Shown here in pieces: positions 23,005-35,892 of a DNA stretch of 64,000 nt. The notes under the pieces were generated by a model, which searched no databases, was not told the origin of the DNA, and saw only the letters and a program-made list of their open reading frames with translations. The DNA is from a virus (Duplodnaviria > Caudoviricetes). The DNA lies in the IMG/VR virus record IMGVR_UViG_3300014613_000025, positions 9,114-73,113 of that record, one strand, 5' to 3'. The translations under genes were made by a program, and so were the position numbers. Position 1 is the first letter of the stretch. Every line of letters begins with the position of its first letter.

Positions 23005-23025
23005 TCACGGTCTCAAGCGCTTCAT
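23005..23025 (-). CDS. Minigene MKRLRP* directly after a sigma54 promoter
   Basis: GCACC-ATG AAG CGC TTG AGA CCG TGA at +6. Confidence 0.35.
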   Translation of the reverse strand: MKRLRP

Positions 23026-23040
23026 GGTGCCCTCAGCAGT

Positions 23041-23056
23041 TGCAATGCGTGTGCCA
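23041..23056 (-). promoter_or_regulatory. sigma54 promoter 1
   Basis: TGGCACACGCATTGCA; ATG at +6. Confidence 0.8.
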
Positions 23057-23057
23057 A

Positions 23058-23306
23058 TCAGGCCGTGCTTCCCACCAGCCAAAGTTCAACCACGGTCTCA
23101 AGCGCTTCCGTCAATGCCTCGTGCCTCGTTGCCCCTGCGCCGATGATGTCGCCATCAAAGTCCAGTCCTGGGTCCACAACGAAGTAGCGCGGCAACCCTT
23201 CCTTGACGCCATCTGCATCCGTCTCTTGGACGTCGATGGCCGTAACGCCTAGCAGGTTGCAAAGCGCGCATCGGGTGTCGTCGATTGTGTGGGTGTTGTT
23301 CTTCAT
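23058..23306 (-). CDS. Small cassette protein MKNNTH...
   Basis: Own sigma54 promoter; start moved from the ORF track to +6. Confidence 0.65.
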   Translation of the reverse strand: MKNNTHTIDDTRCALCNLLGVTAIDVQETDADGVKEGLPRYFVVDPGLDFDGDIIGAGATRHEALTEALETVVELWLVGSTA

Positions 23307-23321
23307 GGTGCTCTCAGTAGT

Positions 23322-23337
23322 TGCAAGTGCGATGCCA
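23322..23337 (-). promoter_or_regulatory. sigma54 promoter 2
   Basis: TGGCATCGCACTTGCA; ATG at +6. Confidence 0.8.
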
Positions 23338-23340
23338 CAG

Positions 23341-23529
23341 TTACCGGCCACGATAGGGCGAACTTGAGACGGTAGGCCGCTGCCCCCCGCCGTTGTCGTT
23401 GTCATGTGCGGCGGCATACCAGCCCTCGCGTTCGAGGTTCGACTTGGGGTTGTCCAAGTCTTGGATGGCTTCCCACATGACCCACATGACCCAACCGTGG
23501 TGCCTGCGCTCGTTATCCTGATTCGTCAT
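23341..23529 (-). CDS. Small protein MTNQDN...
   Basis: SD AGGAG. Confidence 0.5.
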   Translation of the reverse strand: MTNQDNERRHHGWVMWVMWEAIQDLDNPKSNLEREGWYAAAHDNDNGGGQRPTVSSSPYRGR

Positions 23530-23575
23530 GGCGACTCCTGCCGGGGTCACCGCGACCCCGTTGTGCGGGTTGGGG

Positions 23576-23824
23576 TTATGCGTCGAGTGCGTACTCCGCT
23601 GCGCAAGCGCGGCACATGGTCTGGCCGTCGAGGTATCCGCCTTCGGCACGGACCGGCGACTGGCCCTCTTGCGGTTGCAGGATGCGACCACAAGCGCAGC
23701 GGAACGCGCGGGCGGTTGCACCACGGTAGGCTGAGACCACCGCGTCAGCGTGGGCATCGGCATCGTAGCGGGCTTGGATTTCGGCGTGGGTCGCGTCTCG
23801 GTTGCTGTTGTTTTGGTTCTTCAT
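23576..23824 (-). CDS. Small Zn-ribbon cassette protein MKNQNN...
   Basis: Own sigma54 promoter; CACG...CRAC. Confidence 0.65.
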   Translation of the reverse strand: MKNQNNSNRDATHAEIQARYDADAHADAVVSAYRGATARAFRCACGRILQPQEGQSPVRAEGGYLDGQTMCRACAAEYALDA

Positions 23825-23839
23825 GGTACTCTCAACCTT

Positions 23840-23855
23840 TGCAATGCGTGTGCCA
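23840..23855 (-). promoter_or_regulatory. sigma54 promoter 3
   Basis: TGGCACACGCATTGCA; ATG at +6. Confidence 0.8.
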
Positions 23856-23858
23856 GGT

Positions 23859-24071
23859 TCAGCCGCCCATCTGTTCCGCTGACTCGCGCGCTTCGTTCTC
23901 GGCAGCCGCAAAGCGGAGAGCTTCGGCGACACCCTTCAGCGCGCGCTTGCTGCCCCGGAGTGCTCGTCCACACATCCTGACCTGCGCGTCGTCGCCGAAC
24001 CGGTTGGCCTCGTCGCGGAGTTTGCAGATTTGTTCGTAGGTGGGATTGCTGCTGTTGGTCTTGCTGGTCAT
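23859..24071 (-). CDS. Small protein MTSKTN...
   Basis: Leader AGGAGGACACGAACC-ATG; shares LRDEA/GD..QV..C pattern with 25369-25599. Confidence 0.65.
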   Translation of the reverse strand: MTSKTNSSNPTYEQICKLRDEANRFGDDAQVRMCGRALRGSKRALKGVAEALRFAAAENEARESAEQMGG

Positions 24072-24144
24072 GGTTCGTGTCCTCCTACGGCCTCAGGCCG
24101 GGAACCGCGAAGGCTACCCGGCCGGGGTTGGGGTTGGAGAGAGC

Positions 24145-24336
24145 CTATACGGCTACCGTGTATCCGTTGCGCTTAGCGTGGCGGTTGACGCCTTCGACCC
24201 ATTCCTGAGCCGATTCTTCCGACACGAAGTCCATCGTGCTTTGGATGGTGATGCCTTCGAGGTTGCCAGAGATGAAGGTCTGGGAGAAGGTGAGGGTGTA
24301 GGGGTAGGGGTTGCTGCTGTTGTTTTGGTTTTTCAT
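24145..24336 (-). CDS. Small cassette protein MKNQNN...
   Basis: Own sigma54 promoter. Confidence 0.65.
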   Translation of the reverse strand: MKNQNNSSNPYPYTLTFSQTFISGNLEGITIQSTMDFVSEESAQEWVEGVNRHAKRNGYTVAV

Positions 24337-24351
24337 GGTACCAATTCCTAA

Positions 24352-24367
24352 TGCAAACGCGGTGCCA
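24352..24367 (-). promoter_or_regulatory. sigma54 promoter 4
   Basis: TGGCACCGCGTTTGCA; ATG at +6. Confidence 0.8.
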
Positions 24368-24368
24368 A

Positions 24369-24635
24369 TCAGGCCGGGGTGTGCGCGCGGACGAGAGCAC
24401 GAACCGTGTTTTCGTAGGTTGCCGTGAAAACCCAGATGGCGGCATCGTAATCGCCAGCGAAGGTAGCCTTGGGGAATTCAACCTGAAACGACTGCCAAAG
24501 GCCCATGCTCATATCGGTATCGGGTTCGTCTCCGCTAAAGACGCAGTAGTTTACGTGATCTTCCGCAGCGTCGACTGCGAACTTGATGACGCGAGCGGTT
24601 GTCTTGCCGATGTCGTATTGGGTGATGTTCTTCAT
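24369..24635 (-). CDS. Small cassette protein MKNITQ...
   Basis: Own sigma54 promoter. Confidence 0.65.
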   Translation of the reverse strand: MKNITQYDIGKTTARVIKFAVDAAEDHVNYCVFSGDEPDTDMSMGLWQSFQVEFPKATFAGDYDAAIWVFTATYENTVRALVRAHTPA

Positions 24636-24650
24636 GGTGCCCCCAACCTA

Positions 24651-24666
24651 TGCACTCCGCATGCCA
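24651..24666 (-). promoter_or_regulatory. sigma54 promoter 5
   Basis: TGGCATGCGGAGTGCA; ATG at +6. Confidence 0.75.
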
Positions 24667-24732
24667 CGCGCAACCCGAAAGCGTAAACGCCTAGAACGAG
24701 GCTGCGCCGCGCATATCATTGCGCCGCCAGAC

Positions 24733-25124
24733 CACGACTTTGAAGTCAGGGCCATGCAAACTTTGCCGATTCGTCCAAAAGTGTATGGTCACTATTTGGC
24801 CTTGTCCTTAGAAACAAGCGGTATTGCGTTTGGTTGCGCGGATAACAACCATGGCATCCATGTCATGGTGTGCGAAAACGTCGGGGTTTTGGGGGTAACT
24901 TCAGCAGTCCTAATGTTACCGCGAGACGCTACCGGGGCCAGCGCTGACCATGACATCCATGTCATAGCGGATGGCCCCCAAACGCGCGATGCTCGGTAAA
25001 CGTAGGCTAACGTCCCCATGACATCCATGTCATAGCAAACCGGGTCGGCCTTGCCATGCTGCGCGAATACATGCGCAGCGATAGCGTTTTCGCGTTGCAG
25101 GGCGACTATGACATTGATGTCATA
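24733..25124. promoter_or_regulatory. Palindrome cluster A (5 sites, YAYGRC-N6-GTCRTR)
   Basis: Sites at 24733 (imperfect), 24850, 24949, 25017, 25107. Confidence 0.75.
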
Positions 25125-25138
25125 CCCATGAACCATGC

Positions 25139-25372
25139 CTAGAAAACGTCTCTCCGGGTCAACCGCTGGCTTGGTGCTCCACCCTCGCCGCGCAGGGTGG
25201 CCATGATGGCGAGGACATGCGCTATCGTATCGCGAGCCGCTTGTGTCTCGCACACGTCGGGGTCGGACGCTATCGGGGTTATCGCGTTCGCAAGCTCAGC
25301 CGCTAGGTCCGCCGCGTTGAAGGGCCGCTCGCTAGCGATACGCCTAGCGGCGTGGATGCCAACCAGACTCAC
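25139..25372 (-). CDS. Small hypothetical protein
   Basis: GTGA overlap with the upstream gene. Confidence 0.5.
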   Translation of the reverse strand: MSLVGIHAARRIASERPFNAADLAAELANAITPIASDPDVCETQAARDTIAHVLAIMATLRGEGGAPSQRLTRRDVF

Positions 25373-25599
25373 GACGGCCCCGCAGTGCCGCGAGGTTGGC
25401 TGTAGCGGGATTCCGCTACCGCCCCGGCGCAAGCGTCGCGAGCGAACCGTTGGGCCACCTCTGACGGGTAGCTGCCCCCGTCATCGAGGTACACCCCCAA
25501 CGCTATCTCGCATAGCTTCACCTGTTCAGTGTCGCCAGCCATGGCGGCTTCGTTGAGCAAGTCGCCAATCTGTCTGTCCGTCACGTAGTTTGATCCCAT
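25369..25599 (-). CDS. Small protein MGSNYV...
   Basis: SD GAAGGA. Confidence 0.55.
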   Translation of the reverse strand: MGSNYVTDRQIGDLLNEAAMAGDTEQVKLCEIALGVYLDDGGSYPSEVAQRFARDACAGAVAESRYSQPRGTAGPS

Positions 25600-25600
25600 G

Positions 25601-25777
25601 TTATTCGTCCTTCTCGGTTGCTGAGATGGCCTTTGATAGCGCCAGCGCGGTGTGCAGGATGGCGACCTGGACAAGTTCTCTGCCTTCAGCGGTAGACGGT
25701 TCGACCTTGTGTAACGCGTCCAGTGCCTCGTCCAGCGCCGCTAGCGCGGTAGCGTGCGGGGTGTGGTCCGTGGTCAT
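25601..25777 (-). CDS. Small protein MTTDHT...
   Basis: ATGA overlap. Confidence 0.55.
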   Translation of the reverse strand: MTTDHTPHATALAALDEALDALHKVEPSTAEGRELVQVAILHTALALSKAISATEKDE

Positions 25778-25995
25778 GACAGACGGTCCCATCCGCCGTT
25801 GCGCCGCTGGATTTCGACACGACCCCACGCGTCGTCAAAGTAGGGGCGCATGGCGCGAGCGAGCGCACGCTCCGCGCTTGTCACGGACTTGGCGCGCGTC
25901 GCGATGACGTGGCCGACATCGTTACCAGTCTCGCCCACTACCAACCGGAAGGTTGAGCCGTAGGCTTCGTTGGGGTCGTTCTTGTTCGTGGTCAT
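25774..25995 (-). CDS. Small cassette protein MTTNKN...
   Basis: sigma54 promoter plus SD AAGGAG. Confidence 0.65.
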   Translation of the reverse strand: MTTNKNDPNEAYGSTFRLVVGETGNDVGHVIATRAKSVTSAERALARAMRPYFDDAWGRVEIQRRNGGWDRLS

Positions 25996-26022
25996 GTTCG
26001 TGGTCTCCTTGTCTCTCAGCGT

Positions 26023-26038
26023 TGCAAGCGTTACGCCA
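26023..26038 (-). promoter_or_regulatory. sigma54 promoter 6
   Basis: TGGCGTAACGCTTGCA; SD-containing leader. Confidence 0.65.
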
Positions 26039-26357
26039 ACTGCCAACCCTTGGGCAAGTCACACGGCAAGAATTCCGCGTTACCGGCAACGATAACCCCG
26101 ACCGTTGGGCTCGCGACGCAACCGCACGCGCCGTCGCCAAAGGGCGACCCGTCCCACGGCACGACGCTAACGAGGTCAGCACTAGCGTTGTGCGCGCACA
26201 CCTCCGCAACGTCTCGCGACTCGACCATCACACACCACTCGTTCGCGCTTGGTCCTTCCAGGTCGAACCAGATTGCATCATCGCAAGCGAGTCCGTTAGG
26301 GTCTCCGCCGCGAAGGGTGGCGATGTGGAGCGCGCTGGGCTTGGTTGTCGTTGTCAT
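26031..26357 (-). CDS. Cassette protein MTTTTKP...
   Basis: sigma54 promoter plus SD GGAGGA. Confidence 0.65.
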   Translation of the reverse strand: MTTTTKPSALHIATLRGGDPNGLACDDAIWFDLEGPSANEWCVMVESRDVAEVCAHNASADLVSVVPWDGSPFGDGACGCVASPTVGVIVAGNAEFLPCDLPKGWQLA

Positions 26358-26384
26358 GTTCGTATCCTCCTACGCGCCTAAGCC

Positions 26385-26400
26385 TGCAAGGCGTGAGCCA
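26385..26400 (-). promoter_or_regulatory. sigma54 promoter 7
   Basis: TGGCTCACGCCTTGCA; SD-containing leader. Confidence 0.65.
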
Positions 26401-26426
26401 AGCAGGCGAAGCGGTGTGGGTTGTGG

Positions 26427-26990
26427 TTAGAAATTGTAATCGTAGTACTTGTGCCTCGCTCCGATGGTAACGCGTTCCGTGCTGCGCGACACTCGCCAAG
26501 TGCCATCCTTGCGGAGCGTGGCCTTGGTGGTGGGGCCATCCAAGTCTCGTTCGTAGGAGTAGCGCTGGACGCCTTCAGTATGGCCGAAGAACCCACCAGG
26601 TGTGAACGTCAACGCGTCAGGTTCGCCGGAATTGAAGCCGTTGAGCAGGGTGGCCTTGTCGCGCTGCAACGTGATTGTCTTGCCGTTAGCCGACACGGCG
26701 ATGACGGTTTGGGGAGTGGAGTCGCTGTAGTGGTGAATGGTGGCACCGTCACCAACCGCAGGCTTGTTCCGCGCCAACCGCATGGCCTTAGTGAACGAAC
26801 CTCCGCAATCACAGACAATATTTCGGACGTCCAATACTGATGGGGTGCGCCCGTGGCGCTCCATGGTAGCGACGATGATTTCGCGCAGCGAAGCGGTAGC
26901 GATTGACGGGTATGTCCAGCGCAGTAGGTAGTCCTCGCACAGTTCGTCAACGCGCTCGTTCTGGGTGTCGGTCAAGGTTGTCGTTGTCAT
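26427..26990 (-). CDS. Cassette protein MTTTTLT... (187 aa)
   Basis: sigma54 promoter plus SD GGAGGA. Confidence 0.7.
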   Translation of the reverse strand: MTTTTLTDTQNERVDELCEDYLLRWTYPSIATASLREIIVATMERHGRTPSVLDVRNIVCDCGGSFTKAMRLARNKPAVGDGATIHHYSDSTPQTVIAVSANGKTITLQRDKATLLNGFNSGEPDALTFTPGGFFGHTEGVQRYSYERDLDGPTTKATLRKDGTWRVSRSTERVTIGARHKYYDYNF

Positions 26991-27017
26991 TGTCGTTGTC
27001 CTCCTACGCGTTACCTT

Positions 27018-27033
27018 TGCAATTCTAGTGCCA
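27018..27033 (-). promoter_or_regulatory. sigma54 promoter 8
   Basis: TGGCACTAGAATTGCA; SD-containing leader. Confidence 0.8.
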
Positions 27034-27036
27034 CCG

Positions 27037-27258
27037 CTACGCCCTAGCCAAGAATCCTTTGCGGATTGCCAGGTACGCTTGCGACTGTTCGTTGCGGCCA
27101 TGCTTCGCACACGTTGCAGCCATACGGCCAGCGGCATCGGCAGCCATCATGGCGGCATCAACCGAGCCGTTGTAGCGGGCGAGTGCAAAGACCTTGGCTG
27201 CGCGGGTTGGCGTCAAGGAGCCGCTCAGTATCTCTTTGATTTGGTCGATGTAGTTCAT
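27037..27258 (-). CDS. Cassette protein MNYIDQ...
   Basis: Own sigma54 promoter. Confidence 0.65.
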   Translation of the reverse strand: MNYIDQIKEILSGSLTPTRAAKVFALARYNGSVDAAMMAADAAGRMAATCAKHGRNEQSQAYLAIRKGFLARA

Positions 27259-27271
27259 GACATCTTACCTT

Positions 27272-27287
27272 TGCAATCCTCGCGCCA
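27272..27287 (-). promoter_or_regulatory. sigma54 promoter 9
   Basis: TGGCGCGAGGATTGCA; ATG at +4. Confidence 0.75.
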
Positions 27288-27288
27288 A

Positions 27289-27477
27289 CTAGCGCCCGGT
27301 GTGCCTGAGATACCAGCGGACCGCGCCCGATTGAGTCTTGAACGTCTTGCTGACGGTAAACGTCATGGCGAGCCAAGTGCCGTCCGGTTGCGCGAAAACG
27401 CCGCTCGACAGGCTCTCGTTGTTGCCCATGTCAAGGGTCCGGTTCGTTACGGTCGGGGTTGTCGTTGTGGTCTTCAT
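27289..27477 (-). CDS. Cassette protein MKTTTT...
   Basis: Own sigma54 promoter. Confidence 0.65.
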   Translation of the reverse strand: MKTTTTTPTVTNRTLDMGNNESLSSGVFAQPDGTWLAMTFTVSKTFKTQSGAVRWYLRHTGR

Positions 27478-27492
27478 GATGCTTTCCTTCGG

Positions 27493-27508
27493 TGCAAACC
27501 TGATGCCA
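27493..27508 (-). promoter_or_regulatory. sigma54 promoter 10
   Basis: TGGCATCAGGTTTGCA; ATG at +6. Confidence 0.8.
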
Positions 27509-27512
27509 ACCG

Positions 27513-27749
27513 CTACACTTCGACGATGACGCAATCGCCATTGTCGATGGCGCGCACGAAGCTGGCGGTAGCACTGTTGGCCCAATACGAGCCGCAGTTT
27601 TCGAGGTAGCGCGAGAACACGCCAGCAAGTTGGGCAGACCTGAAAGTCTTGCGTGCGCGCTTGCCATTGATGGGGTCCGTGTAGCGGACCGTGGTGCGTC
27701 CGGTACGGGTTGTCGTGGTCTCGATGTCGGCGTTGTATTGAGTCGTCAT
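27513..27749 (-). CDS. Cassette protein MTTQYN...
   Basis: Own sigma54 promoter. Confidence 0.65.
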   Translation of the reverse strand: MTTQYNADIETTTTRTGRTTVRYTDPINGKRARKTFRSAQLAGVFSRYLENCGSYWANSATASFVRAIDNGDCVIVEV

Positions 27750-27764
27750 GATGCTTGTTCCTTA

Positions 27765-27780
27765 TGCGAGCGGCGTGCCA
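27765..27780 (-). promoter_or_regulatory. sigma54 promoter 11
   Basis: TGGCACGCCGCTCGCA; ATG at +6. Confidence 0.75.
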
Positions 27781-27781
27781 A

Positions 27782-28072
27782 TCACTCCCACGAACCGTTA
27801 CGCGTTCGGGTCAAGCCAACGGAGCGGCGGATGCCGTTGCTCGCGCGAGCCCTGGCGTTACGTGCGTTCCGCGCCTTGTCCTGCGTTGCCGCTTCGGTGC
27901 GTGCGCAAGTGCGTCCAGACTCGGTCAACGAAAGGTAATCGGCGTCGAATACGTCGCCTTCTGCGAGGCCGTAGGCCACAAGTGCGCCGAGAGTCTCCCA
28001 TCCGCATCGCGGGGTCTGGTTGAGGTAGAGGGCCAGGAGTGCATCGCGCTGGGTTCTGGTGAGCTTATTCAT
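27782..28072 (-). CDS. Cassette protein MNKLTR...
   Basis: Own sigma54 promoter. Confidence 0.65.
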   Translation of the reverse strand: MNKLTRTQRDALLALYLNQTPRCGWETLGALVAYGLAEGDVFDADYLSLTESGRTCARTEAATQDKARNARNARARASNGIRRSVGLTRTRNGSWE

Positions 28073-28085
28073 GGGAGATTCCTTA

Positions 28086-28101
28086 TGCGATACTTGTGCC
28101 A
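28086..28101 (-). promoter_or_regulatory. sigma54 promoter 12
   Basis: TGGCACAAGTATCGCA; ATG at +4. Confidence 0.75.
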
Positions 28102-28107
28102 AGTGGT

Positions 28108-28497
28108 CTAGCCGTTGTGGCGATGGCCGCTGCCGTTGCAACGGTAGCAGCAACCGCCGTTAATGTGGCGGTACTCAGGCAGCACACCAGTCCCACCACA
28201 GCGCGGGCACTTGGCGGCTTCGCGCTCTGCGTTGGCGACTGCTGCCTGAACCTGGTAAAGCGCATCCAAGCGCGTTTCCGTGGCGGAATCCATGGCCTTA
28301 GAGGTGGTCGCCATCAACAGGGCCAGCGGGTCGAAGGGTGCGGATGCATCGTAGGAGGCGTCAAGCGTCGGAGCGAAAGCAGCGCGAATCTCGGCGATAC
28401 GGTCGGCGATGGCATCGGAACCGGTTGCGATTGCCATTAGGTCAGCAACCACTTCGTCGTCGAGTGCGAGGAGGGCGGTGTTTTCGTTGGCGTTCAT
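28108..28497 (-). CDS. Cassette protein with C-terminal CxxCxGxG zinc finger
   Basis: CPRCGGTG...CYRCNGSG; own sigma54 promoter. Confidence 0.7.
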   Translation of the reverse strand: MNANENTALLALDDEVVADLMAIATGSDAIADRIAEIRAAFAPTLDASYDASAPFDPLALLMATTSKAMDSATETRLDALYQVQAAVANAEREAAKCPRCGGTGVLPEYRHINGGCCYRCNGSGHRHNG

Positions 28498-28512
28498 GAT
28501 GATAATTCCTAA

Positions 28513-28528
28513 TGCTAGATGCGTGCCA
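28513..28528 (-). promoter_or_regulatory. sigma54 promoter 13
   Basis: TGGCACGCATCTAGCA; ATG at +6. Confidence 0.75.
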
Positions 28529-28534
28529 ACTTGG

Positions 28535-28744
28535 CTAGCGAGCGCGGCGAGTCTTGCGAGTGGGCATCGTCAATTCGATATCGTCCACCGTGAGGGTATT
28601 GACGGCCTTGGTGGTATTGAGCCAGCGGACGCAGCGGTCGCACATGCAACGCCCCGCATCTTCGGAATCCATAAAGCAGACGTTGGTTCCGTAGGTGGGG
28701 TGGTTGGTGTCGATGGTAACGTTGGCGTGTTCTGCGTTCGTCAT
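28535..28744 (-). CDS. Cassette protein MTNAEH...
   Basis: Own sigma54 promoter; CMCDRC. Confidence 0.6.
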   Translation of the reverse strand: MTNAEHANVTIDTNHPTYGTNVCFMDSEDAGRCMCDRCVRWLNTTKAVNTLTVDDIELTMPTRKTRRAR

Positions 28745-28759
28745 GGTGCTTCGACACAA

Positions 28760-28775
28760 TGCAACAGCGATGCCA
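28760..28775 (-). promoter_or_regulatory. sigma54 promoter 14
   Basis: TGGCATCGCTGTTGCA; ATG at +6. Confidence 0.8.
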
Positions 28776-28867
28776 ACCAGACAACCTAGCCCAACCGCAT
28801 ATCATTACGCTGGCACTGCACGGAACCACCGATGTTCAGTGCTTTGGCGGGGCTGAAATGTATGGTG

Positions 28868-29335
28868 CCATACATGCAGGACTAAACGTATGACTTCAAT
28901 GTCATAGGGCCTTTAGCGCTTTGATTCTCGATGAAACGTGACGCCAAAGGGGAATGACCATACATGTAGGAGCAAACGTATGACTTGAAAGTCATAGGGC
29001 CAAACCGTCACGATGTGCCTAGAAAACAAGCGTGGCGCGCAAAGCGTGGCTGAATGACCATACACGTAGGAGCAAACGCATGGCGCCGTGGTCATACTGA
29101 ACAAGGCCCAACCCCATCGAGCGGACCTTGGCGCCGTGGTCCGATGTCGAATGTTCGCGTTGGCCTTGTTCTGTAGCGTTTAGCGTTCGTTGGGCCACGA
29201 GTCCGCAACGTTTGCATACCACCACGACATCAAAGTCATAGGTGTTTCGGGTTCGCGGAATGCCTTGAATCGTAGCGGCAAGCGCGGCGTGACCATACAT
29301 GCAGGAGCAAATGCATGACTTCAATGTCATGGTGC
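28868..29335. promoter_or_regulatory. Palindrome cluster B (5 sites; four lie in a 43-bp repeat unit)
   Basis: Sites at 28889, 28979, 29079, 29223, 29314. Confidence 0.75.
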
Positions 29336-29846: not shown

Positions 29847-30161
29847 TTACAGGCTCAGATAAAGGCCGGTCTCATCGGTGAACAAGGTCTTCAACCCATC
29901 GGCGTAGATGTCGCTATGCGCGCTGCGCTTGGTTGCCTTGCCGCCACGGACCGTCCAGAATTCAACGGTGTAGGTGTCGCTAGGGTCCAAGCGAACCTTG
30001 ACCATGTTTGACTTGTTACGGGCGCGCGCCTTGAACCGGAATGACGCGGTGTCCTCCGTCCCGAAGAACGATGACGCGCCAAGCATGGCGGAGAGTCGGC
30101 CCGTGCCGCCCATCTGGGCTAGGATTGTGTTTGCAACTTCGAGGTTGGTTTGCGTTGTCAT
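29847..30161 (-). CDS. Phage protein MTTQTNLEVANTILAQMGG...
   Basis: Own sigma54 promoter; TILAQMGG...DTYTVEF...DIYADGL pattern recalled from phage hypothetical proteins. Confidence 0.7.
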   Translation of the reverse strand: MTTQTNLEVANTILAQMGGTGRLSAMLGASSFFGTEDTASFRFKARARNKSNMVKVRLDPSDTYTVEFWTVRGGKATKRSAHSDIYADGLKTLFTDETGLYLSL

Positions 30162-30176
30162 GATGCTTTCCTGTCT

Positions 30177-30192
30177 TGCACGAGCCGTGCCA
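30177..30192 (-). promoter_or_regulatory. sigma54 promoter 15
   Basis: TGGCACGGCTCGTGCA; ATG at +6. Confidence 0.8.
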
Positions 30193-30474
30193 TCACTTGC
30201 TGGCGAGGTAGGCAACCACTCGGCGCAGGTCGCGTGCGCCAAGGGATCCGAACCTGTCAGCGATCCATCCGCCGTCCGAGTCGCTAACGCTAGCGCTCGT
30301 TCCTTTGCCGCAAGCGGAAGGGGTTACGGTAAGCACTGCGTCAGCCGGAACCTGGCGCACGCGAACCTTGGTCCCCTCGTAGCAACCCGCGTTGACGTAG
30401 GCGAGCGGTTGGCCCCAAAGGGCGGAGCAGAGGTCAGCGGCTGAGACGGTGATGGGGTTGGTGAAGTTCGTCAT
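30193..30474 (-). CDS. Cassette protein MTNFTN...
   Basis: Own sigma54 promoter. Confidence 0.65.
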   Translation of the reverse strand: MTNFTNPITVSAADLCSALWGQPLAYVNAGCYEGTKVRVRQVPADAVLTVTPSACGKGTSASVSDSDGGWIADRFGSLGARDLRRVVAYLASK

Positions 30475-30489
30475 GGTGTTGGTTCTCTT

Positions 30490-30505
30490 TGCACGAGCCG
30501 TGCCA
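30490..30505 (-). promoter_or_regulatory. sigma54 promoter 16
   Basis: TGGCACGGCTCGTGCA (identical to 15); ATG at +6. Confidence 0.8.
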
Positions 30506-30562
30506 CTAACGCAGCATGCCCCGCGTGGCATGCGCCAGCGGGGCGGTTGGCGTGGGTTCTGG

Positions 30563-30790
30563 CTACACGCTCTCGGCCACTTCCTGCAAACGCCGCATCC
30601 AATACGCCTTCTCTTCCCTGCCGCCAATCACCATCTCATTGGCTGCGCGGCAAGCCTCAACGTGCGAGTAAAACCCGCACTCGCCAGCGTTGGGCGCGTT
30701 GGCAACGAGGGAGGCGAATCGGGCCTTGCCAGCAAGGATGCAGCGTTCGGATTTGGCGATCTGGTTGGTGATGTAGGTTGCGGTATTCAT
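30563..30790 (-). CDS. Cassette protein MNTATY...
   Basis: sigma54 promoter plus SD AAGGAG. Confidence 0.65.
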   Translation of the reverse strand: MNTATYITNQIAKSERCILAGKARFASLVANAPNAGECGFYSHVEACRAANEMVIGGREEKAYWMRRLQEVAESV

Positions 30791-30818
30791 GGTTCGTGTT
30801 CTCCTTGCCAGATAGCAA

Positions 30819-30834
30819 TGCACTCCGCGTGCCA
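30819..30834 (-). promoter_or_regulatory. sigma54 promoter 17
   Basis: TGGCACGCGGAGTGCA; SD-containing leader. Confidence 0.75.
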
Positions 30835-30838
30835 ACCG

Positions 30839-31030
30839 CTACCAGTCCTCCAACCACTCGATGGTGGCCCCGTCTTCCAGCAAGGCCCACGGGCGGCCAT
30901 CGTGGTAAACGAGCACGAACCAAAGATGCCACTCGCCGATTTTGTTACACACGTGAGGGCGGCCCATGATGTCGCTGGTTTTGATGTAGTCGGAGCAAGC
31001 GGCTTGGGTCGTGAAGGTCATGGTATTCAT
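30839..31030 (-). CDS. Cassette protein MNTMTF...
   Basis: Own sigma54 promoter. Confidence 0.65.
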   Translation of the reverse strand: MNTMTFTTQAACSDYIKTSDIMGRPHVCNKIGEWHLWFVLVYHDGRPWALLEDGATIEWLEDW

Positions 31031-31045
31031 GGTGCTTGGTTCCTT

Positions 31046-31061
31046 TGCGAGACTCGTGCCA
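31046..31061 (-). promoter_or_regulatory. sigma54 promoter 18
   Basis: TGGCACGAGTCTCGCA; ATG at +6. Confidence 0.75.
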
Positions 31062-31065
31062 ATGT

Positions 31066-31266
31066 CTACGCTATCCTGAGACCTGACACCAGCCTCTGGT
31101 TCGCTCGGCTGTAGGTGGCGGTGCTGACTCGGTCAAGCTCTGCCTTTGCCGCTGCATCGCCAGTCCACGCCTTCGTTGTCTTGTCGAACGCGAATCCGCA
31201 GTCGCGGAGCAGTTTCGCTGCGGGGTAGGTGTTTCCGGTGATGGTGACTGTGTTCTCGTTGTTCAT
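31066..31266 (-). CDS. Cassette protein with GNTY...G..FD..TK.W motif (DUF5710/HARP-like)
   Basis: TITGNTYPAAKLLRDCGFAFDKTTKAW. Confidence 0.65.
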   Translation of the reverse strand: MNNENTVTITGNTYPAAKLLRDCGFAFDKTTKAWTGDAAAKAELDRVSTATYSRANQRLVSGLRIA

Positions 31267-31281
31267 GATGACTCTTCCTTA

Positions 31282-31297
31282 TGCACTCAGCGTGCCA
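31282..31297 (-). promoter_or_regulatory. sigma54 promoter 19
   Basis: TGGCACGCTGAGTGCA; ATG at +6. Confidence 0.8.
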
Positions 31298-31298
31298 A

Positions 31299-31466
31299 TC
31301 ATGCCCAGGTTTCGGTGCAGAGTACCTCGAACCCATTGACGCGACCCTTGCTGTCAAGCGATTCGCGCACCAGTCGGCGGACCTTGCGGCAAGTGTTGGT
31401 CTCCCAGAAGCAGCGGTATTCGACGGTCGGGGCCACGGTCGACTTGGTGTTGTTTTGGTTCTTCAT
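31299..31466 (-). CDS. 55-aa cassette protein MKNQNNTK..., not in the ORF track
   Basis: Own sigma54 promoter; TGA abuts the next promoter. Confidence 0.6.
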   Translation of the reverse strand: MKNQNNTKSTVAPTVEYRCFWETNTCRKVRRLVRESLDSKGRVNGFEVLCTETWA

Positions 31467-31481
31467 GGTACAAGTTACCTT

Positions 31482-31497
31482 TGCACGCGTCGTGCCA
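31482..31497 (-). promoter_or_regulatory. sigma54 promoter 20
   Basis: TGGCACGACGCGTGCA; ATG at +6. Confidence 0.8.
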
Positions 31498-31517
31498 GGT
31501 TCAACAAAACTAACCGT

Positions 31518-31784
31518 TCAGCATCCCCAGATCCAGATCTGGTAAGTGTTCAGATTGCCGTGTTCATGCAGATATTCGAGCGCATCGGCGAAGTCTTCGC
31601 GCGTCCAATCGAGCACGCGGATCGCTATCGATTCGTTCGAATAGCGCGGCTTGCGCGTTAGCATCTTTCCGTAGTCGTCGAGGTTCCACTCACCTCCCCT
31701 GGCTCCTCGTTCCAACAACGCACGCAAGCCACGGGGGGTAAAAGCCCAGTAGTGATCGTACTGCTGAACGTATATTCTAGACAT
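31518..31784 (-). CDS. Hypothetical protein MSRIYV...
   Basis: SD AAGGA; overlaps the upstream ORF. Confidence 0.6.
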   Translation of the reverse strand: MSRIYVQQYDHYWAFTPRGLRALLERGARGGEWNLDDYGKMLTRKPRYSNESIAIRVLDWTREDFADALEYLHEHGNLNTYQIWIWGC

Positions 31785-31941
31785 TGCAGCTATCTTCCTT
31801 GTCCAACCTAAGTTCCGTCGCTACGATCCTGCGAATGTAGGCTTCAATTTGGTCCCGCGATGCCATCCCAGGAATCCCTAGCCGCGTGGCTATCGTGCGG
31901 CGATCTTCGTCAGTTACCTCGACCAAAACTCGAATTTTCAT
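31777..31941 (-). CDS. Small protein MKIRVL...
   Basis: SD GGGGGG. Confidence 0.5.
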   Translation of the reverse strand: MKIRVLVEVTDEDRRTIATRLGIPGMASRDQIEAYIRRIVATELRLDKEDSCNV

Positions 31942-31949
31942 GTCCCCCC

Positions 31950-32231
31950 CTACGCTCGGCAAAGGTGGACCCAGATCGACTTGATCGTCCACGTCCCATA
32001 GTCGGCATCGTCTACCATGTCCAAGTCGAACATGCGGTCGACCACGGCGTCCGAAACCCGGCGCTCCCACACGGGCCGAGCGGAGTCGAAGATCGACCAC
32101 ATTTTCTCGCCAAGGCCCGGCCTCATCAGAGTGACGGTCCCAGTACACTCCGCGAGGGCCTTTCGCAATCCGGCGGGTAGGCGAGCGGGGTTGTTGTCTG
32201 TGCCCGCGGTGCGCTTGCTCGTGCTCTTCAT
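31950..32231 (-). CDS. Cassette protein MKSTSK...
   Basis: sigma54 promoter plus AGGAGGACACGAACC leader. Confidence 0.65.
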   Translation of the reverse strand: MKSTSKRTAGTDNNPARLPAGLRKALAECTGTVTLMRPGLGEKMWSIFDSARPVWERRVSDAVVDRMFDLDMVDDADYGTWTIKSIWVHLCRA

Positions 32232-32258
32232 GGTTCGTGTCCTCCTGCTTGTTATCAT

Positions 32259-32274
32259 TGCATTCAGCGTGCCA
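32259..32274 (-). promoter_or_regulatory. sigma54 promoter 21
   Basis: TGGCACGCTGAATGCA; SD-containing leader. Confidence 0.75.
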
Positions 32275-32275
32275 A

Positions 32276-32533
32276 TCACTCCCCGCAGAATCCGTCGTCG
32301 CATAGACAAGCCGTTGCGTTGCCTTTCGCCCAATCCTTGGCCGCCGTCAAGGCTCGGAACCACTTGCTCTTACCATTGTCCAGGCACACTTCGTATTCGG
32401 TCCCATGGATTTGGCTTACAAGCACCGTGATTGTTCCCTCGCTATTCCCATCGATGGCGACGTCAATCCGTGCGCTTCCGTCCCAGTTGGTGACCTTGTC
32501 TCCGAACGTGACCTTGTTTGTTTGAGTCTTCAT
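32276..32533 (-). CDS. Cassette protein MKTQTN...
   Basis: Own sigma54 promoter. Confidence 0.65.
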   Translation of the reverse strand: MKTQTNKVTFGDKVTNWDGSARIDVAIDGNSEGTITVLVSQIHGTEYEVCLDNGKSKWFRALTAAKDWAKGNATACLCDDGFCGE

Positions 32534-32548
32534 GGTACAAGTTACCTT

Positions 32549-32564
32549 TGCAGGACGTGTGCCA
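32549..32564 (-). promoter_or_regulatory. sigma54 promoter 22
   Basis: TGGCACACGTCCTGCA; ATG at +6. Confidence 0.75.
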
Positions 32565-32574
32565 ACCTGACGGC

Positions 32575-32784
32575 TCACTCGAATTCGGCGAACAGGTCAG
32601 GTTCGCCATCGGCGTCCACCGGGCGACCCTGGGCGACCCAATCGGCCTTGAATGCAGCGTGGCAAGCGGCAACGCGAGCGGATTCCGCTGCATCCGCGCG
32701 TCGCTCCTTAGCGGTGCGGTAGTAGTTCGCGGGGTTGCTGATGTAGGCGTGGACGTCTGCGAAGCTGGTTTGGTTGTTGTTCAT
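32575..32784 (-). CDS. Cassette protein MNNNQT...
   Basis: Own sigma54 promoter. Confidence 0.65.
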   Translation of the reverse strand: MNNNQTSFADVHAYISNPANYYRTAKERRADAAESARVAACHAAFKADWVAQGRPVDADGEPDLFAEFE

Positions 32785-32799
32785 GGTGCAATCCTACCT

Positions 32800-32815
32800 A
32801 GCACGCACTGTGCCA
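32800..32815 (-). promoter_or_regulatory. sigma54 promoter 23
   Basis: TGGCACAGTGCGTGCT; ATG at +6. Confidence 0.75.
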
Positions 32816-32883
32816 ATACCCCAACGACACCGCGAAGCGCTACGTCTACCGACGAAAGCGCGTTCCACTGAGTGGATTCATAC

Positions 32884-33309
32884 CACGACTTTCAAGTCGT
32901 GCCTGTGCAAAGTTTGCCGGTTTGGCCAAAAACGTATGGTCACTGTTCCGCGATACGCTATGAAACAAGGGTTAGCGTAACTTGCGCACACCTGAACACC
33001 GCACGACTTTCAAGTCGTGGTGTTGCTGGCATGCCTTGTTTTGTGGCGTTTGGCAAAGGGTACAAGTAATGCTGGTACCCTTGGGGCCACGGCCCGCAAC
33101 GGTGTGTGCGCTTGGTAGGACATGTGCGCTTGCCATGGCGTCAATGTCATACTGAACAAGCCAAACCGCACGACTTGCCGTAACCTGTAGGCTTTAGCCA
33201 CCACGACTTCGATGTCATGCTGAACAAGCCCCAATGGTGCACGGTTGTTGTGTTTGGCTTTAGTTGTGCGGATATCGTGGTAGGCGGCGGGTATGGCGTG
33301 GATGTCGTG
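32884..33309. promoter_or_regulatory. Palindrome cluster C (5 sites)
   Basis: Sites at 32884, 33002, 33134, 33202, 33292. Confidence 0.75.
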
Positions 33310-33328
33310 GTGGGTGTGCGTTCAGTGT

Positions 33329-33778
33329 CTAACCGACGATGCGCAACCCGGCATCGGCGACCATGGCCCGCACGATGTCAAGCGGAAGGTTGACCACCGC
33401 GACGCACCAGCCGTATCCGTAGCGCGTACGGCCCTCGTATTCATCGAAGCCAATCCGGCGCAGGGCGCGGATAGCAACGCCACGAGACGTCGCCTCAACC
33501 TCATATTCCCCAGCGGTATCCTGGTGGCTCAACTTGGTCGCAAGCGCACGGACTGCCTTGCGTGTCGAGTCGTCTCCGGTCAAGGTCGCGAGGCAATCGC
33601 CACCCATGGGACCGTGCGAGGTCAGGAAGACGTTGCCAATCCTCGCGCCGCAGCACACGCATGAGATGTTGGCAAAGGTTCCGCCAAGCGCTTCCAGGGC
33701 CGCTGGCGAGCCAGCAACCGCGAATCCTTCGAGGGCCACGCCGTCAAACTTGTCGCGGATCTTCTGGGTAAGTCGCAT
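33329..33778 (-). CDS. Zn-ribbon hypothetical protein downstream of the tRNA-like RNA
   Basis: SD GAGGGAG; CVCCG...GGDC. Confidence 0.65.
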   Translation of the reverse strand: MRLTQKIRDKFDGVALEGFAVAGSPAALEALGGTFANISCVCCGARIGNVFLTSHGPMGGDCLATLTGDDSTRKAVRALATKLSHQDTAGEYEVEATSRGVAIRALRRIGFDEYEGRTRYGYGWCVAVVNLPLDIVRAMVADAGLRIVG

Positions 33779-33804
33779 CGTCGTCTCCCTCTTCTCGTTG
33801 TCCT

Positions 33805-33889
33805 TGGTCGCAACCGTTGGAGTCGAACCAACCTTATACCACAATCACCCTGGTGGGCGCTCGCCGGAGCCTTTTCGTTGTGGGCTGCG
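33805..33889 (-). ncRNA. 85-nt tRNA-like RNA (acceptor stem, T arm and CCA; non-canonical core)
   Basis: CGCAGCC/GGTTGCG-A-CCA; GTTGG-TTCGACT-CCAAC; begins at +5 of sigma54 promoter 24. Confidence 0.75.
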
Positions 33890-33903
33890 ATGCTTGGTGA
33901 GTA

Positions 33904-33919
33904 TGCGAACGGCGTGCCA
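33904..33919 (-). promoter_or_regulatory. sigma54 promoter 24 (drives the tRNA-like RNA)
   Basis: TGGCACGCCGTTCGCA. Confidence 0.75.
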
Positions 33920-33921
33920 AG

Positions 33922-34113
33922 CTATGCGGCACGCTGGCTTTCCAACAGCGCTAGCCGCCAATACGCGGCCTCAAGCCGCTCGCCCACACGGAGGCCGTGC
34001 CAGGTGTGGGTTACGCCAGCGAACCGCCTATTGTTTAGGTCGCGAATCTCGACCTTGAGGTCAAGGATGCGACGTTGGATAAGCTCAGGAGTCATGCGGG
34101 TTGTGTTCGTCAT
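33922..34113 (-). CDS. Cassette protein MTNTTR...
   Basis: Own sigma54 promoter. Confidence 0.65.
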   Translation of the reverse strand: MTNTTRMTPELIQRRILDLKVEIRDLNNRRFAGVTHTWHGLRVGERLEAAYWRLALLESQRAA

Positions 34114-34126
34114 GGCTCTACTCCCA

Positions 34127-34142
34127 TGCACTCAGCGTGCCA
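34127..34142 (-). promoter_or_regulatory. sigma54 promoter 25
   Basis: TGGCACGCTGAGTGCA (identical to 19); ATG at +4. Confidence 0.8.
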
Positions 34143-34147
34143 AGCGC

Positions 34148-34411
34148 TCAGCGCGTTACCCTGAACCCCTGCGAGGTTGCGTTCAGGTAGACGTTCTCGG
34201 CGGCGATGCGGCAGTTGTTGCGGTGCGTTTCGGCATCGAGCAGAGCTTGCGGCCACTGCTCAGGTACACCGGCGCAGATCGTAGCGTACCGCAGCGCATT
34301 GTATGCGTGAATGGCCTTATCGTAGGCTTTCGTCGCCTTGTTCATGGCAACCTTGGCAGCGCGCGCGGTCGGGAAGGTCTTGGTCTCGGCGGGGTTGGCT
34401 TGGTTCGTCAT
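34148..34411 (-). CDS. Cassette protein MTNQAN...
   Basis: Own sigma54 promoter. Confidence 0.65.
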   Translation of the reverse strand: MTNQANPAETKTFPTARAAKVAMNKATKAYDKAIHAYNALRYATICAGVPEQWPQALLDAETHRNNCRIAAENVYLNATSQGFRVTR

Positions 34412-34426
34412 GGTGCAAACCCACTA

Positions 34427-34442
34427 TGCACGCACCATGCCA
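34427..34442 (-). promoter_or_regulatory. sigma54 promoter 26
   Basis: TGGCATGGTGCGTGCA; ATG at +6. Confidence 0.75.
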
Positions 34443-34509
34443 CGCAACACAAAAACGCGAAACGTCTACTCCCACAGGGACAACGTTGTTACACTAAGTA
34501 GATTCACAC

Positions 34510-34911
34510 CATGGCATTCAAGTCGTGCTATTGCAAAAGTTGCGTGATTGACCCAAAAGTGTATGGTCATTCCAAACGCGTCCTCAACGTTTCCGACATG
34601 TTGCGCGCCTAGTGAGTCATTCTTGACCCATGGCAAAACGGTCCTGGTCTGCACGAAGTGTCTTGTTTTGTAGCGGTTTGCGAAACGTGGCGGGCTAGGT
34701 CTGCCAGGTGTCGGGTTGTCGCGGCGAGACGATAGCCAACGGCCTACCATGACAGCGGTGTCATAGCAAAACGTCACATTAGCGAATCCTTCGAGGTTTA
34801 CGCTATGACATTGAAGTCATAGCATCGAGGTCCAAGACGGCTACGATGTGCTGGCGTGGCTTGTTCTGTAGCGATTGAGGTACGCGTGGCGGGTATGACA
34901 TTGATGTCATA
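34510..34911. promoter_or_regulatory. Palindrome cluster D (5 sites)
   Basis: Sites at 34510, 34629 (imperfect), 34748, 34804, 34894. Confidence 0.75.
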
Positions 34912-35191
34912 GGGTCTTGGCGGAGCGAAGGATTCGCGACGAAAGCGAGGTCAGCGCGTCACGGACCTTGCCGTCGCCATCGTCGTCCGCGCTATTGACG
35001 GCGTCAATTAGTCGCGACCATGCGGCTTCCTCTGCTCCCTCGTTGACGTGTAGCACGCCTGCGGCATGGTCGAACGTGCCAGGAAACGGCTCGTAGTCGC
35101 CGTCAAAGGCCAGGCAATCGTCAAACGCGGGGTCGAATACATAGATGGTCAACCCGCACGCCTGAATCTCGCCTACGCGGAATGTCGCCAT
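34907..35191 (-). CDS. Hypothetical protein MATFRV...
   Basis: TGATG coupling to the upstream gene; its stop lies inside a palindrome. Confidence 0.6.
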   Translation of the reverse strand: MATFRVGEIQACGLTIYVFDPAFDDCLAFDGDYEPFPGTFDHAAGVLHVNEGAEEAAWSRLIDAVNSADDDGDGKVRDALTSLSSRILRSAKTL

Positions 35192-35406
35192 CAGATGCCG
35201 CGACGCGCGCGCTCCTTTTGGAACAAGGACAATTCGGTGAGGTATCTTTCGCCGCCCATGCGCTGAACCCAGCTATTCGTGGCGGTAACGGTGAGCAGTC
35301 CTTCAAGAGCGAGGGAGCAGTCGCGATGCGACCACACCAGCTCGGAGTCACTCATCTTGCGGATGCGGTCGGCGATGCGCTTGGTTGCCTTGTCGGTGTT
35401 CTTCAT
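35191..35406 (-). CDS. Cassette protein MKNTDK...
   Basis: Own sigma54 promoter. Confidence 0.65.
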   Translation of the reverse strand: MKNTDKATKRIADRIRKMSDSELVWSHRDCSLALEGLLTVTATNSWVQRMGGERYLTELSLFQKERARRGI

Positions 35407-35421
35407 GGTGCTTTCCGAGTA

Positions 35422-35437
35422 TGCGAACGCTATGCCA
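35422..35437 (-). promoter_or_regulatory. sigma54 promoter 27
   Basis: TGGCATAGCGTTCGCA; ATG at +6. Confidence 0.75.
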
Positions 35438-35479
35438 TCGTTGCCGTAGCCTCAAAACCGCCAGGCTCGACACCCAAGC

Positions 35480-35641
35480 CATGACACGAATGTCATACCT
35501 AAACGCCGTTTCGCGATATTCGTGAGGTTTTCGCTATGACATTGGTGTCATGCTTAGGCGAGCGGTTGTCGGCTCGCTTCGCAATGTGCCTTTATTTGTA
35601 GCGATTATGCGCGGAGCGGGTGGTATGACATTGGTGTCATG
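35480..35641. promoter_or_regulatory. Palindrome cluster E (3 sites)
   Basis: Sites at 35480, 35535, 35624. Confidence 0.75.
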
Positions 35642-35652
35642 GCAGGCTGTGG

Positions 35653-35892
35653 TCATGCGTACATGGCGGCGTTCAAGGCCAGCCACGCTGCATCCACATG
35701 CGCGTTCAAGGTCTTGGCGTAGAGCCAGCGCGCCATGTTCACAGCCTTGCGGCTAGGCTTGCGGCTGCTGCTAGTGACGCACTGGATCCTGATCTCACCC
35801 AGGCAATCACAGGCGAACAAGTAGCCCCCGACTGTAACCGTCATGGGTGCGCCGCTGCCGTCCGAGTAGACTTCGATTGCTGTGGTTTTCAT
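35653..35892 (-). CDS. Cassette protein MKTTAI...
   Basis: Own sigma54 promoter. Confidence 0.6.
   Translation of the reverse strand: MKTTAIEVYSDGSGAPMTVTVGGYLFACDCLGEIRIQCVTSSSRKPSRKAVNMARWLYAKTLNAHVDAAWLALNAAMYA

Follow-up and report, generated by a model that had tools for sequence, protein, structure and literature searches.

A window of 64,000 nucleotides (nt), bases 9114-73113 of the linear 73,113-bp IMG/VR record IMGVR_UViG_3300014613_000025 (a Caudoviricetes virus, estimated 78% complete), carries an array of small genes preceded by sigma-54-type promoters. In 22 of these promoter-gene cassettes, the ATG lies so close to the predicted transcription start that no room is left for a Shine-Dalgarno (SD) sequence. 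We consider, with a probability of roughly 0.55, that each cassette would be a compact transcription-translation unit with leaderless-type initiation. The plus strand of the window encodes a large terminase, a Mu-type portal, a prohead protease, a tape-measure protein and a sugar-nucleotide pathway. Coding switches to the minus strand from about 22,500 to 36,050, a part that contains about 40 small open reading frames (ORFs) to which no function is assigned; Pfam and PHROGs searches of ten cassette proteins gave a known function for none. The whole analysis was carried out in silico, and the motif, its geometry and constraint, the identity of the start codons, the low structure and the SD contrast with neighbouring genes are read directly from the DNA.

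The strict pattern TGGC-N8-TGCA has 24 matches in the window compared to 4.15 expected, and 22 of them are on the minus strand of 23041-36009. Scanning with a position weight matrix (PWM) gave 29 minus-strand TGGCAC-N5-TTGCA sites within 23005-36009, preceding genes. With the matrix rebuilt from the array sites, 29 of the 31 sites scoring at least 14.5 in the whole 73-kb genome were array members; the two strong sites outside the array, at 3332 (-) and 60615 (-), are antisense to plus-strand genes and have no nearby start codon. The promoter consensus is GTTGGCACGCGGCTTGCA, in which TGGC and GC are invariant in the 29 sites, the A at -22 is kept in 26 and A or T follows GC in all. GG and GC are separated by exactly ten bases within TGGCAC-N5-TTGCW at the 29 sites, as is the rule for sigma-54 promoters, and all 29 are on the coding strand, 14-41 nt ahead of a start codon or of the 5' end of an RNA. 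The motifs might instead be recognised by a factor or polymerase specific to the phage, or act as an operator at the RNA or DNA level; neither the start site nor the leader length could then be deduced from them. This would agree with the failure to find an activator gene (PF00158) in the 73-kb record or a close phage relative in the collections searched; it is nevertheless quite improbable, as the 29 copies keep all conserved positions of the sigma-54 consensus (TGGCA, ten bases, GC, then A/T), are all co-oriented with genes and have palindrome islands upstream like enhancers. These islands are non-coding, contain dense ATGAC-N6-GTCAT-type palindromes and are found at 24700-25140, at 28800-29340 and also near 35640, upstream of promoter blocks and positioned like enhancer sites.

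To describe the promoter-to-gene geometry, distances were counted from the C of GC to the A of ATG. The corresponding numbering depends on the convention that GC is -13/-12 (C+17 being +6, C+15 being +4 and C+14 being +3) and refers to predicted start sites. The A of ATG is found at 17 nt (+6) at 18 sites, at 15 nt (+4) at three (promoters 27273, 28087 and 34128) and at 14 nt (+3) at one (promoter 35906). Five other sites have a distance of 29-30 nt with AAGGAG or GGAGG (17-18-nt leaders), one (promoter 35995) has a distance of 41 nt with GGAGGGG, and promoter 33905 precedes an RNA that has an acceptor stem, a T arm and CCA. The leader words of the +6 class are GCACC (eight), GTACC (four), GCATC (three), TCATC (two) and ACACC (one). 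The matrix scan and the distance count therefore reproduce what a sequence-only reading of this DNA had proposed, that is 29 promoters with ATG at +6, +4 and +3 in 18, 3 and 1 cases, the five leader words, six longer AAGGAG/GGAGG leaders and one promoter driving an RNA. The predicted ATG offsets are bimodal (3, 4, 4, 4 and 18 times 6 on one side; four times 18, then 19 and 30 on the other), with none from 7 to 17. No SD is present in any of the short-class leaders (GCACC, GTACC, GCATC, TCATC, ACACC, GTC, CCC, GCC and GT), and the first promoter after a non-coding island belongs to the short class in five of five cases.

A pyrimidine-purine step is the usual signature of a transcription start site. 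Among all 29 promoters, including those of the SD class and that of the RNA, position C+12 is G in 22, C+13 is a pyrimidine (Y) in 28 and C+14 is A in 25; in the remaining four, the Y-A step occurs one base later, at C+14/15. As the sigma-54 motif of C. jejuni is found 8-13 nt upstream of mapped start sites (PMC3847290), which corresponds to starts roughly 10-16 nt past GC and covers C+12 to C+15, the conserved G-Y-A makes a start at G(C+12) or A(C+14) plausible. With a start at A(C+14), the leader of the main class may be 3 nt long (AYC), the four +3/+4 genes may start exactly at the A of ATG and be fully leaderless, and A(A)GGAG would be the very 5' end of the SD-class RNAs. The 5-nt leader of the sequence-only reading is thus fixed as far as the length from GC to ATG is concerned (constant in 18 copies), but the value of 5 nt was an assumption that G-Y-A fits no better than 3 nt. 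Either predicted start leaves no space for an SD, and the predicted leader is 0-5 nt in 22 genes for starts from C+12 to C+15. Messenger RNAs with at most 5 nt before the start codon are counted as leaderless, according to the citation of Beck and Moll 2018 in PMC12754779, so that the short-class RNAs would qualify under this operational definition. For the main class we rejected a start coinciding with the A of ATG, 17 nt past GC, as the +3/+4 variants would then need different promoter-to-start distances.

Pairwise identity among the 18 +6 promoters amounts to 0.30 in the upstream part, 0.38 from one promoter element to the other and 0.33 over the -10..-1 spacer, with 0.26 expected at random, compared to 0.78 at +1..+5, 1.0 for ATG and 0.50 for codons 2-8. 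No indel is present between GC and ATG in any of the 18 copies, and the only length variants are the shorter offsets (3 or 4) or a jump to at least 18. Since the spacer is near-random in identity, the modules are old and diverged, though the length from GC to ATG is unchanged; the +6 spacing looks selected rather than inherited. It might have been a frozen accident, one ancestral promoter-ATG module having been copied by recombination, with a short leader devoid of translational meaning and genes that are maybe weakly expressed. Cassettes do share 5' ends at the nucleotide level (e.g. ATGAAGAACCAAAACAAC in three unrelated proteins), and an 18-nt repeat at promoter 23042 can be taken as a recombination scar. 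However, near-random spacers and flanks (0.30-0.38) without an indel in 18 copies, while +1..+9 is conserved, and length variants that are only shorter or result from a discrete 12-13-nt jump adding an SD, make such an origin improbable. The repeat, cacggtctcaagcgcttc, is direct and present at 23006-23023 and 23091-23108, on either side of the promoter; its downstream copy forms a 6-codon ORF, and the arrangement looks like the scar of a cassette insertion or duplication.

The jump to longer leaders has a simple structure, the SD class consisting of the short module plus a discrete 12-13-nt GGAGGACACGAA insert. At promoter 32260, removing the bracketed insert from GCA[GGAGGACACGAA]CCATGAAG restores the short consensus GCACCATGAAG. 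The same SD block is used by the promoter-less gene 24071.

Several observations support the assignment of the cassette ATGs as start codons. They open ORFs of 55-129 codons except at promoters 23042 (6 codons) and 35995 (4 codons), where the sequence-only reading needs correction. No in-frame alternative start with an SD was found inside the first 24 codons among the array genes, and in-frame starts located upstream have no SD and would overlap the preceding gene. For the 104-aa (amino acid) cassette protein, 34 homologues of 99-119 residues were found, and in the 12 that were aligned the N-terminus is 0-6 residues from this ATG; compared to the PHROG profile, the cassette protein has an extra MTTQTN-type N-terminal extension. 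ATG is used at 28 of 28 array starts, as opposed to 19 ATG, 8 GTG and 1 TTG in 28 strong-SD plus-strand genes (Fisher p = 0.002), and the difference persists when the short class is taken alone (22/22 against 19/28, Fisher p = 0.003). The base following ATG is always A, and the base preceding it is C in 24 of 26.

The beginning of the coding sequences is also unusual. Codons 2-9 contain 43% A, 36% C, 13% G and 7% T (79% A+C), compared to 20% A, 31% C, 30% G and 18% T in the remainder of the same genes, and encode 28% Thr and 20% Asn. A CA-rich sequence after the start is an enhancer of both leaderless and leadered translation (PMC9031893). Over the first 40 nt from the predicted +1, the mean minimum free energy (MFE) is -1.6 kcal/mol, compared to -9.6 kcal/mol in 301 windows from the interior of these genes (p = 3e-14). 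A/C-rich coding starts and unstructured 5' ends, both noted in the sequence-only reading, were thus recovered. The SD class has A/C-rich starts as well, and because it also has the low structure, this property goes with the 5'-terminal position and not with the absence of an SD. As a consequence, A/C-richness is no mark of the near-leaderless mode that had been tied to these promoters; what upholds a distinct class of genes whose own transcripts leave no space for an SD is the bimodality of the leaders, the exclusive use of ATG, the low structure, the presence of SD-led neighbours and the lack of an alternative SD-led start near the 5' end. Thr makes up 8% of residues elsewhere compared to the 28% of codons 2-9, and its main codon there is ACC, not ACG; a tRNA-Thr(CGU) gene was called by both ARAGORN and Rfam at window 11182-11259 (+).

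Promoter-less genes of the array mostly have SDs of -8 to -12 kcal/mol or ATGA overlaps. Pairing to the anti-SD before the ATG amounts to -8.5 to -10.3 kcal/mol in the SD class and to a median of -4.2 kcal/mol in the short class. In another interpretation, translation would occur mainly from polycistronic read-through RNA, with the purine run acting as a modest SD or with re-initiation after a stop codon 30-37 nt upstream, and the short promoter-ATG distance would reflect compaction. Read-through RNA is likely, because no intrinsic terminator was found on the minus strand and, in 14 cassettes, 15-21 nt separate the end of the preceding stop codon from the C of GC. Pairing in the 22 nt before short-class ATGs is indeed better than for the 2,399 ATG triplets of the genome (median -4.2 versus -2.4 kcal/mol, p = 9e-7) and than in the same promoter-relative window of the seven SD/RNA promoters (0 to -3.9 kcal/mol, p = 0.0014); 10 of the 22 short-class genes reach -5.5 kcal/mol or better at a spacing of 3-9 nt (e.g. 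AUAAGGAA at 6-8 nt), the rest having weak runs or none. The suspicion raised in the sequence-only reading, that purine runs near the -12 element serve as SDs, is to this extent borne out. However, these runs are far weaker than the SDs of the SD class and of most promoter-less neighbours (-8 to -12 kcal/mol), gene 28744 has no SD-like run at all, and AAAGGTAAC also follows the -12 element of the SD-class promoter 27019, where a role as SD is impossible. Furthermore, translation from read-through RNA leaves unexplained the ATG-only rule, the bimodal leaders and the fact that genes first after an island are exclusively of the short class. SD-like strength showed no clear difference between first-after-island and internal cassettes. 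We read read-through with weak SD-like runs as a secondary route rather than the main one; as the main route it is unlikely, though it is the strongest of the competing explanations.

It had also been suggested, as a possibility, that the near-leaderless mode escapes a shut-off of SD-dependent initiation, so that the short-leader class would let the phage go on translating once it has shut off such initiation. Only the presence of 22 genes that lack an SD pointed in this direction, no search for a candidate shut-off factor having been made in the genome. Strong GGAGG-type SDs precede at least 28 plus-strand ORFs (at least 100 codons), five array genes and promoter-less array genes. An escape from shut-off does not fit, because the structural genes of the phage and many array genes need strong SDs, and we regard it as very improbable.

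Combined, these results lead us to propose the following for the promoter-gene cassettes; that sigma-54 is used, where transcription starts and how the ribosome is recruited are what we infer from the features above. The host sigma-54 holoenzyme would bind TGGCAC-N5-TTGCA and, after activation, transcription would start at the conserved G-Y-A, 12-14 nt past the C of GC. In 22 cassettes the ATG would come 0-5 nt after the start, giving an mRNA that is leaderless by the usual definition and lacks an SD. The ribosome would then find the AUG through its nearness to the 5' end, by leaderless-type, 5'-end-dependent initiation, helped by the obligatory AUG, by the A directly after it and by about eight A/C-rich, structure-free codons (Thr, Asn, Lys, Gln). 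Where stronger or more conventional initiation is wanted, the 12-13-nt GGAGGACACGAA insert would turn the same module into a minimal SD leader. As cassettes abut without terminators, read-through RNA from upstream promoters would also carry these genes, and on such RNA the purine-rich spacer (UAAGGA, AAGGAA and similar, 6-9 nt before the ATG) may provide a weak secondary SD route.

A number of points weigh against this proposal. PF00158, the activator family, has no match in the 73-kb record, itself estimated 78% complete. In Caulobacter reporters, translation initiation efficiency (TIE) follows TIE = 0.45 x i^-0.91, each added 5' nucleotide about halving leaderless initiation, and by this relation a 3-5-nt leader keeps only ~10-16% (PMC8459731); short leaders are also rare in nature (PMC8459731). 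Because leaderless initiation falls with leader length in Caulobacter, a conserved 3-5-nt leader is unexpected and implies that the host is tolerant or that the phage has an aid of its own. Further points are the enrichment of weak SD-like runs in the spacer and the lack of terminators. Finally, no sister genome was found for a conservation test among GenBank phages, IMG/VR and metagenome contigs.

The individual cassettes, all on the minus strand, can be grouped by leader. GCACC with ATG at +6 is found at 23304..23337 (gene 23306-23058, 82 aa), 24633..24666 (24635-24369, 88 aa, the first after a palindrome island), 28742..28775 (28744-28535, whose lack of any SD-like run corresponds to -0.2 kcal/mol), 31028..31061 (31030-30839), 32782..32815 (32784-32575), 34409..34442 (34411-34148) and 35404..35437 (35406-35191, with a weaker -24 context); those at 28742..28775, 32782..32815 and 34409..34442 are also first after an island. 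The eighth copy, promoter 23042 (23023..23056), opens only the 6-codon ORF MKRLRP (23025-23005), the real gene starting from 22990 after AAGGA. GTACC with ATG at +6 precedes genes 23824-23576 (82 aa; cassette 23822..23855), 24336-24145 (63 aa; 24334..24367) and 31466-31299 (31464..31497), which all begin with MKNQNN, and gene 32533-32276 (32531..32564). The GCATC leader, again with ATG at +6, is present at 27475..27508 (gene 27477-27289, spacer containing GAAGGAA), at 27747..27780 (27749-27513, spacer containing AUAAGGAA) and at 30159..30192 (30161-29847), where the gene encodes the 104-aa protein whose start is supported by the N-termini of homologues. The remaining +6 cassettes have TCATC (28495..28528, gene 28497-28108, 129 aa; 31264..31297, gene 31266-31066) or ACACC (30472..30505, gene 30474-30193). 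ATG is at +4 after GTC for promoter 27273 (27256..27287, gene 27258-27037), where the A of ATG follows the Y at C+14/15, after CCC for promoter 28087 (28070..28101, gene 28072-27782) and after GCC for promoter 34128 (34111..34142, gene 34113-33922). It is at +3 after GT for promoter 35906 (35890..35920, gene 35892-35653), where the A of ATG coincides with the invariant A at C+14.

In the SD class, 17-nt leaders with ATG at +18 are found at 25993..26038 (AAGGAG, gene 25995-25774), 26355..26400 (GGAGG, gene 26357-26031) and 26988..27033 (GGAGG, gene 26990-26427, 187 aa), and an 18-nt leader with AAGGAG and ATG at +19 at 30788..30834 (gene 30790-30563). Promoter 32260 (32229..32274, gene 32231-31950), described above as the short module plus a 12-nt SD insert, has a 17-nt leader. 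Promoter 35995 (35952..36009) has GGAGGGG followed by a 4-codon ORF and is the upstream member of a tandem in the divergent intergenic region 35893-36056, in which the sigma-54-type promoters 35995 and 35906 are 89 bp apart. A 268-aa minus-strand ORF at 36459-35653 is probably spurious, because plus-strand genes with SDs start near 36057 and 36289 and fill ~36057-36654; the two promoters would also fall inside it. Promoter 33905 (33805..33919) has GCATC and then a tRNA-like RNA beginning about where other cassettes have their ATG. This RNA, 33805-33888 (-), has a 7-bp acceptor stem, a T arm with a UUCGACU loop, a discriminator A and an encoded CCA, and lacks an anticodon arm; Rfam gave no match, and it folds with an MFE no better than shuffled sequences do.

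Relatives of the array were looked for by several routes. The array gave no megablast match to GenBank phages, and tblastn with the portal protein retrieved relatives only at ≤30% identity; an atlas search with the portal protein gave no host clue. Terminase relatives in IMG/VR (≤42% identity) had the array in none of five long records, and those in GTDB genomes were scattered metagenome-assembled genomes at ≤36% identity, for which reason no host was called from them. Of two neighbouring genes, the one with DUF4942 retrieved nothing from IMG/VR, and the NeuA-like one matched metagenome contigs at ≤34% identity over most of the protein and at 43% over half of it in one short contig. Two geometry patterns run over IMG/VR gave 1 and 78 single matches, estimated to be near chance, and no contig with at least two. 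One such match (L001) is a strong sigma-54-type site opening a 170-codon lipoprotein-like ORF that begins MKKLTLTLALLLNAC (lipoprotein-type signal). Another strong sigma-54-type site (L087) is found in record G006 (IMGVR_UViG_3300033148_004560), with GCATC-ATG-ACG-AAC opening a 67-codon ORF (MTNTNN) that has an in-frame stop 3 codons upstream. This record, a complete 49-kb phage, contains sigma-54-like sites (L151) at 6463(+), 1097(+) and 222(-), with ATG at +6 and +3, and its +6 gene is homologous to a promoter-less gene of the array (47% identity over 36 aa). No sigma-54 site was found in the contigs carrying homologues of the 104-aa cassette protein. In three phage contigs with such homologues (L049:7558-7630, L051:2709-2781 and L047:9931-10003), TTGAT-N17-TAGTAG (or TACTAC) is located 4 nt before the ATG of the homologue, which may represent a sigma-70-type leaderless layout of the same gene family.

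Beyond this genome, we tentatively envisage that some uncultured phages fuse the sigma-54 start to the ribosome start (G-Y-A-Y-C-AUG-A plus a CA-rich run), giving about 22 small, probably early, genes a translation regime of their own that depends on the 5' end and not on an SD, with the 12-nt insert switching a gene to the SD mode; this generalisation is a possibility that we think less likely than its opposite. If true, it would constitute the first systematic class of sigma-54-driven leaderless mRNAs, in a host tolerating 3-5-nt leaders far better than Caulobacter or E. coli. Should transcription start at G-Y-A, a start codon can be joined directly to an enhancer-dependent promoter, selection can keep 3-5-nt leaders although reporter work says that they cripple leaderless initiation, and one 12-nt insert switches a gene between two initiation modes. 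The 28 cassettes (0, 3, 5 or 17 nt) would form a natural series for the rules of 5'-end-dependent initiation and a possible source of compact expression parts, and the weak SDs inside the modules prompt one to ask how a single sequence can be promoter spacer and ribosome site at once.

Sigma-54 promoters and leaderless mRNAs are each well known; their pairing is rare, and we found no report combining them as a rule. Leaderless mRNAs are produced from sigma-70-type promoters whose -10 element abuts the ORF, as for lambda cI from PRM and in Deinococcus-Thermus, Mycobacterium and Caulobacter (PMC12340547, PMC8459731, PMC9031893). The array resembles them by a start codon at most 5 nt from the 5' end (predicted here), the lack of an SD, the strong preference for AUG, the low structure and the A/C-rich enhancer-like start. 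It differs by its -24/-12 enhancer-dependent promoters, by a mostly fixed leader of 3-5 nt instead of 0 nt and by the occurrence of 22 copies in one phage array. With the classical sigma-54 promoters (glnAp2/NtrC, nifH/NifA, pspA/PspF), the array shares the TGGCAC-N5-TTGCA core, palindromic sites within non-coding islands located upstream, and an expected start some 12 nt past GC. Classical sigma-54 promoters have ordinary SD-containing leaders and occur once per operon, whereas the array fuses the start codon to the predicted start site and has nearly one promoter per gene.

Use of host sigma-54 promoters by a phage has a published precedent in Pseudomonas phage YuA (Ceyssens et al. 2008, as cited in PMC10914365). 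In the YuA genome (NC_010116), the three annotated -24/-12 fragments match the motif weakly (PWM ≤5.3), and at the nearest GG-N10-GC sites the ATG is found at C+20 or beyond (C+20 to C+31 for the best placed, with a normal SD); unlike the present phage, YuA has no array and no short leader. The downstream CA-repeat enhancer (Martin-Farmer and Janssen 1999, in the account given by PMC9031893) is comparable in that an A/C-rich run after the AUG raises both leadered and leaderless translation, codons 2-9 of the array genes being 79% A+C. In the array, however, the run is a natural and conserved part of the promoter-start module, and it adds a few Thr/Asn/Gln residues ahead of a conserved core in the one protein family checked. 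Overall, the observation of the sequence-only reading is confirmed and its interpretation partly supported: known elements would be combined here, a promoter of the enhancer type being joined to the start codon and the pair repeated as an array, with the caveat of read-through transcripts together with the weak SD-like runs in the spacer.

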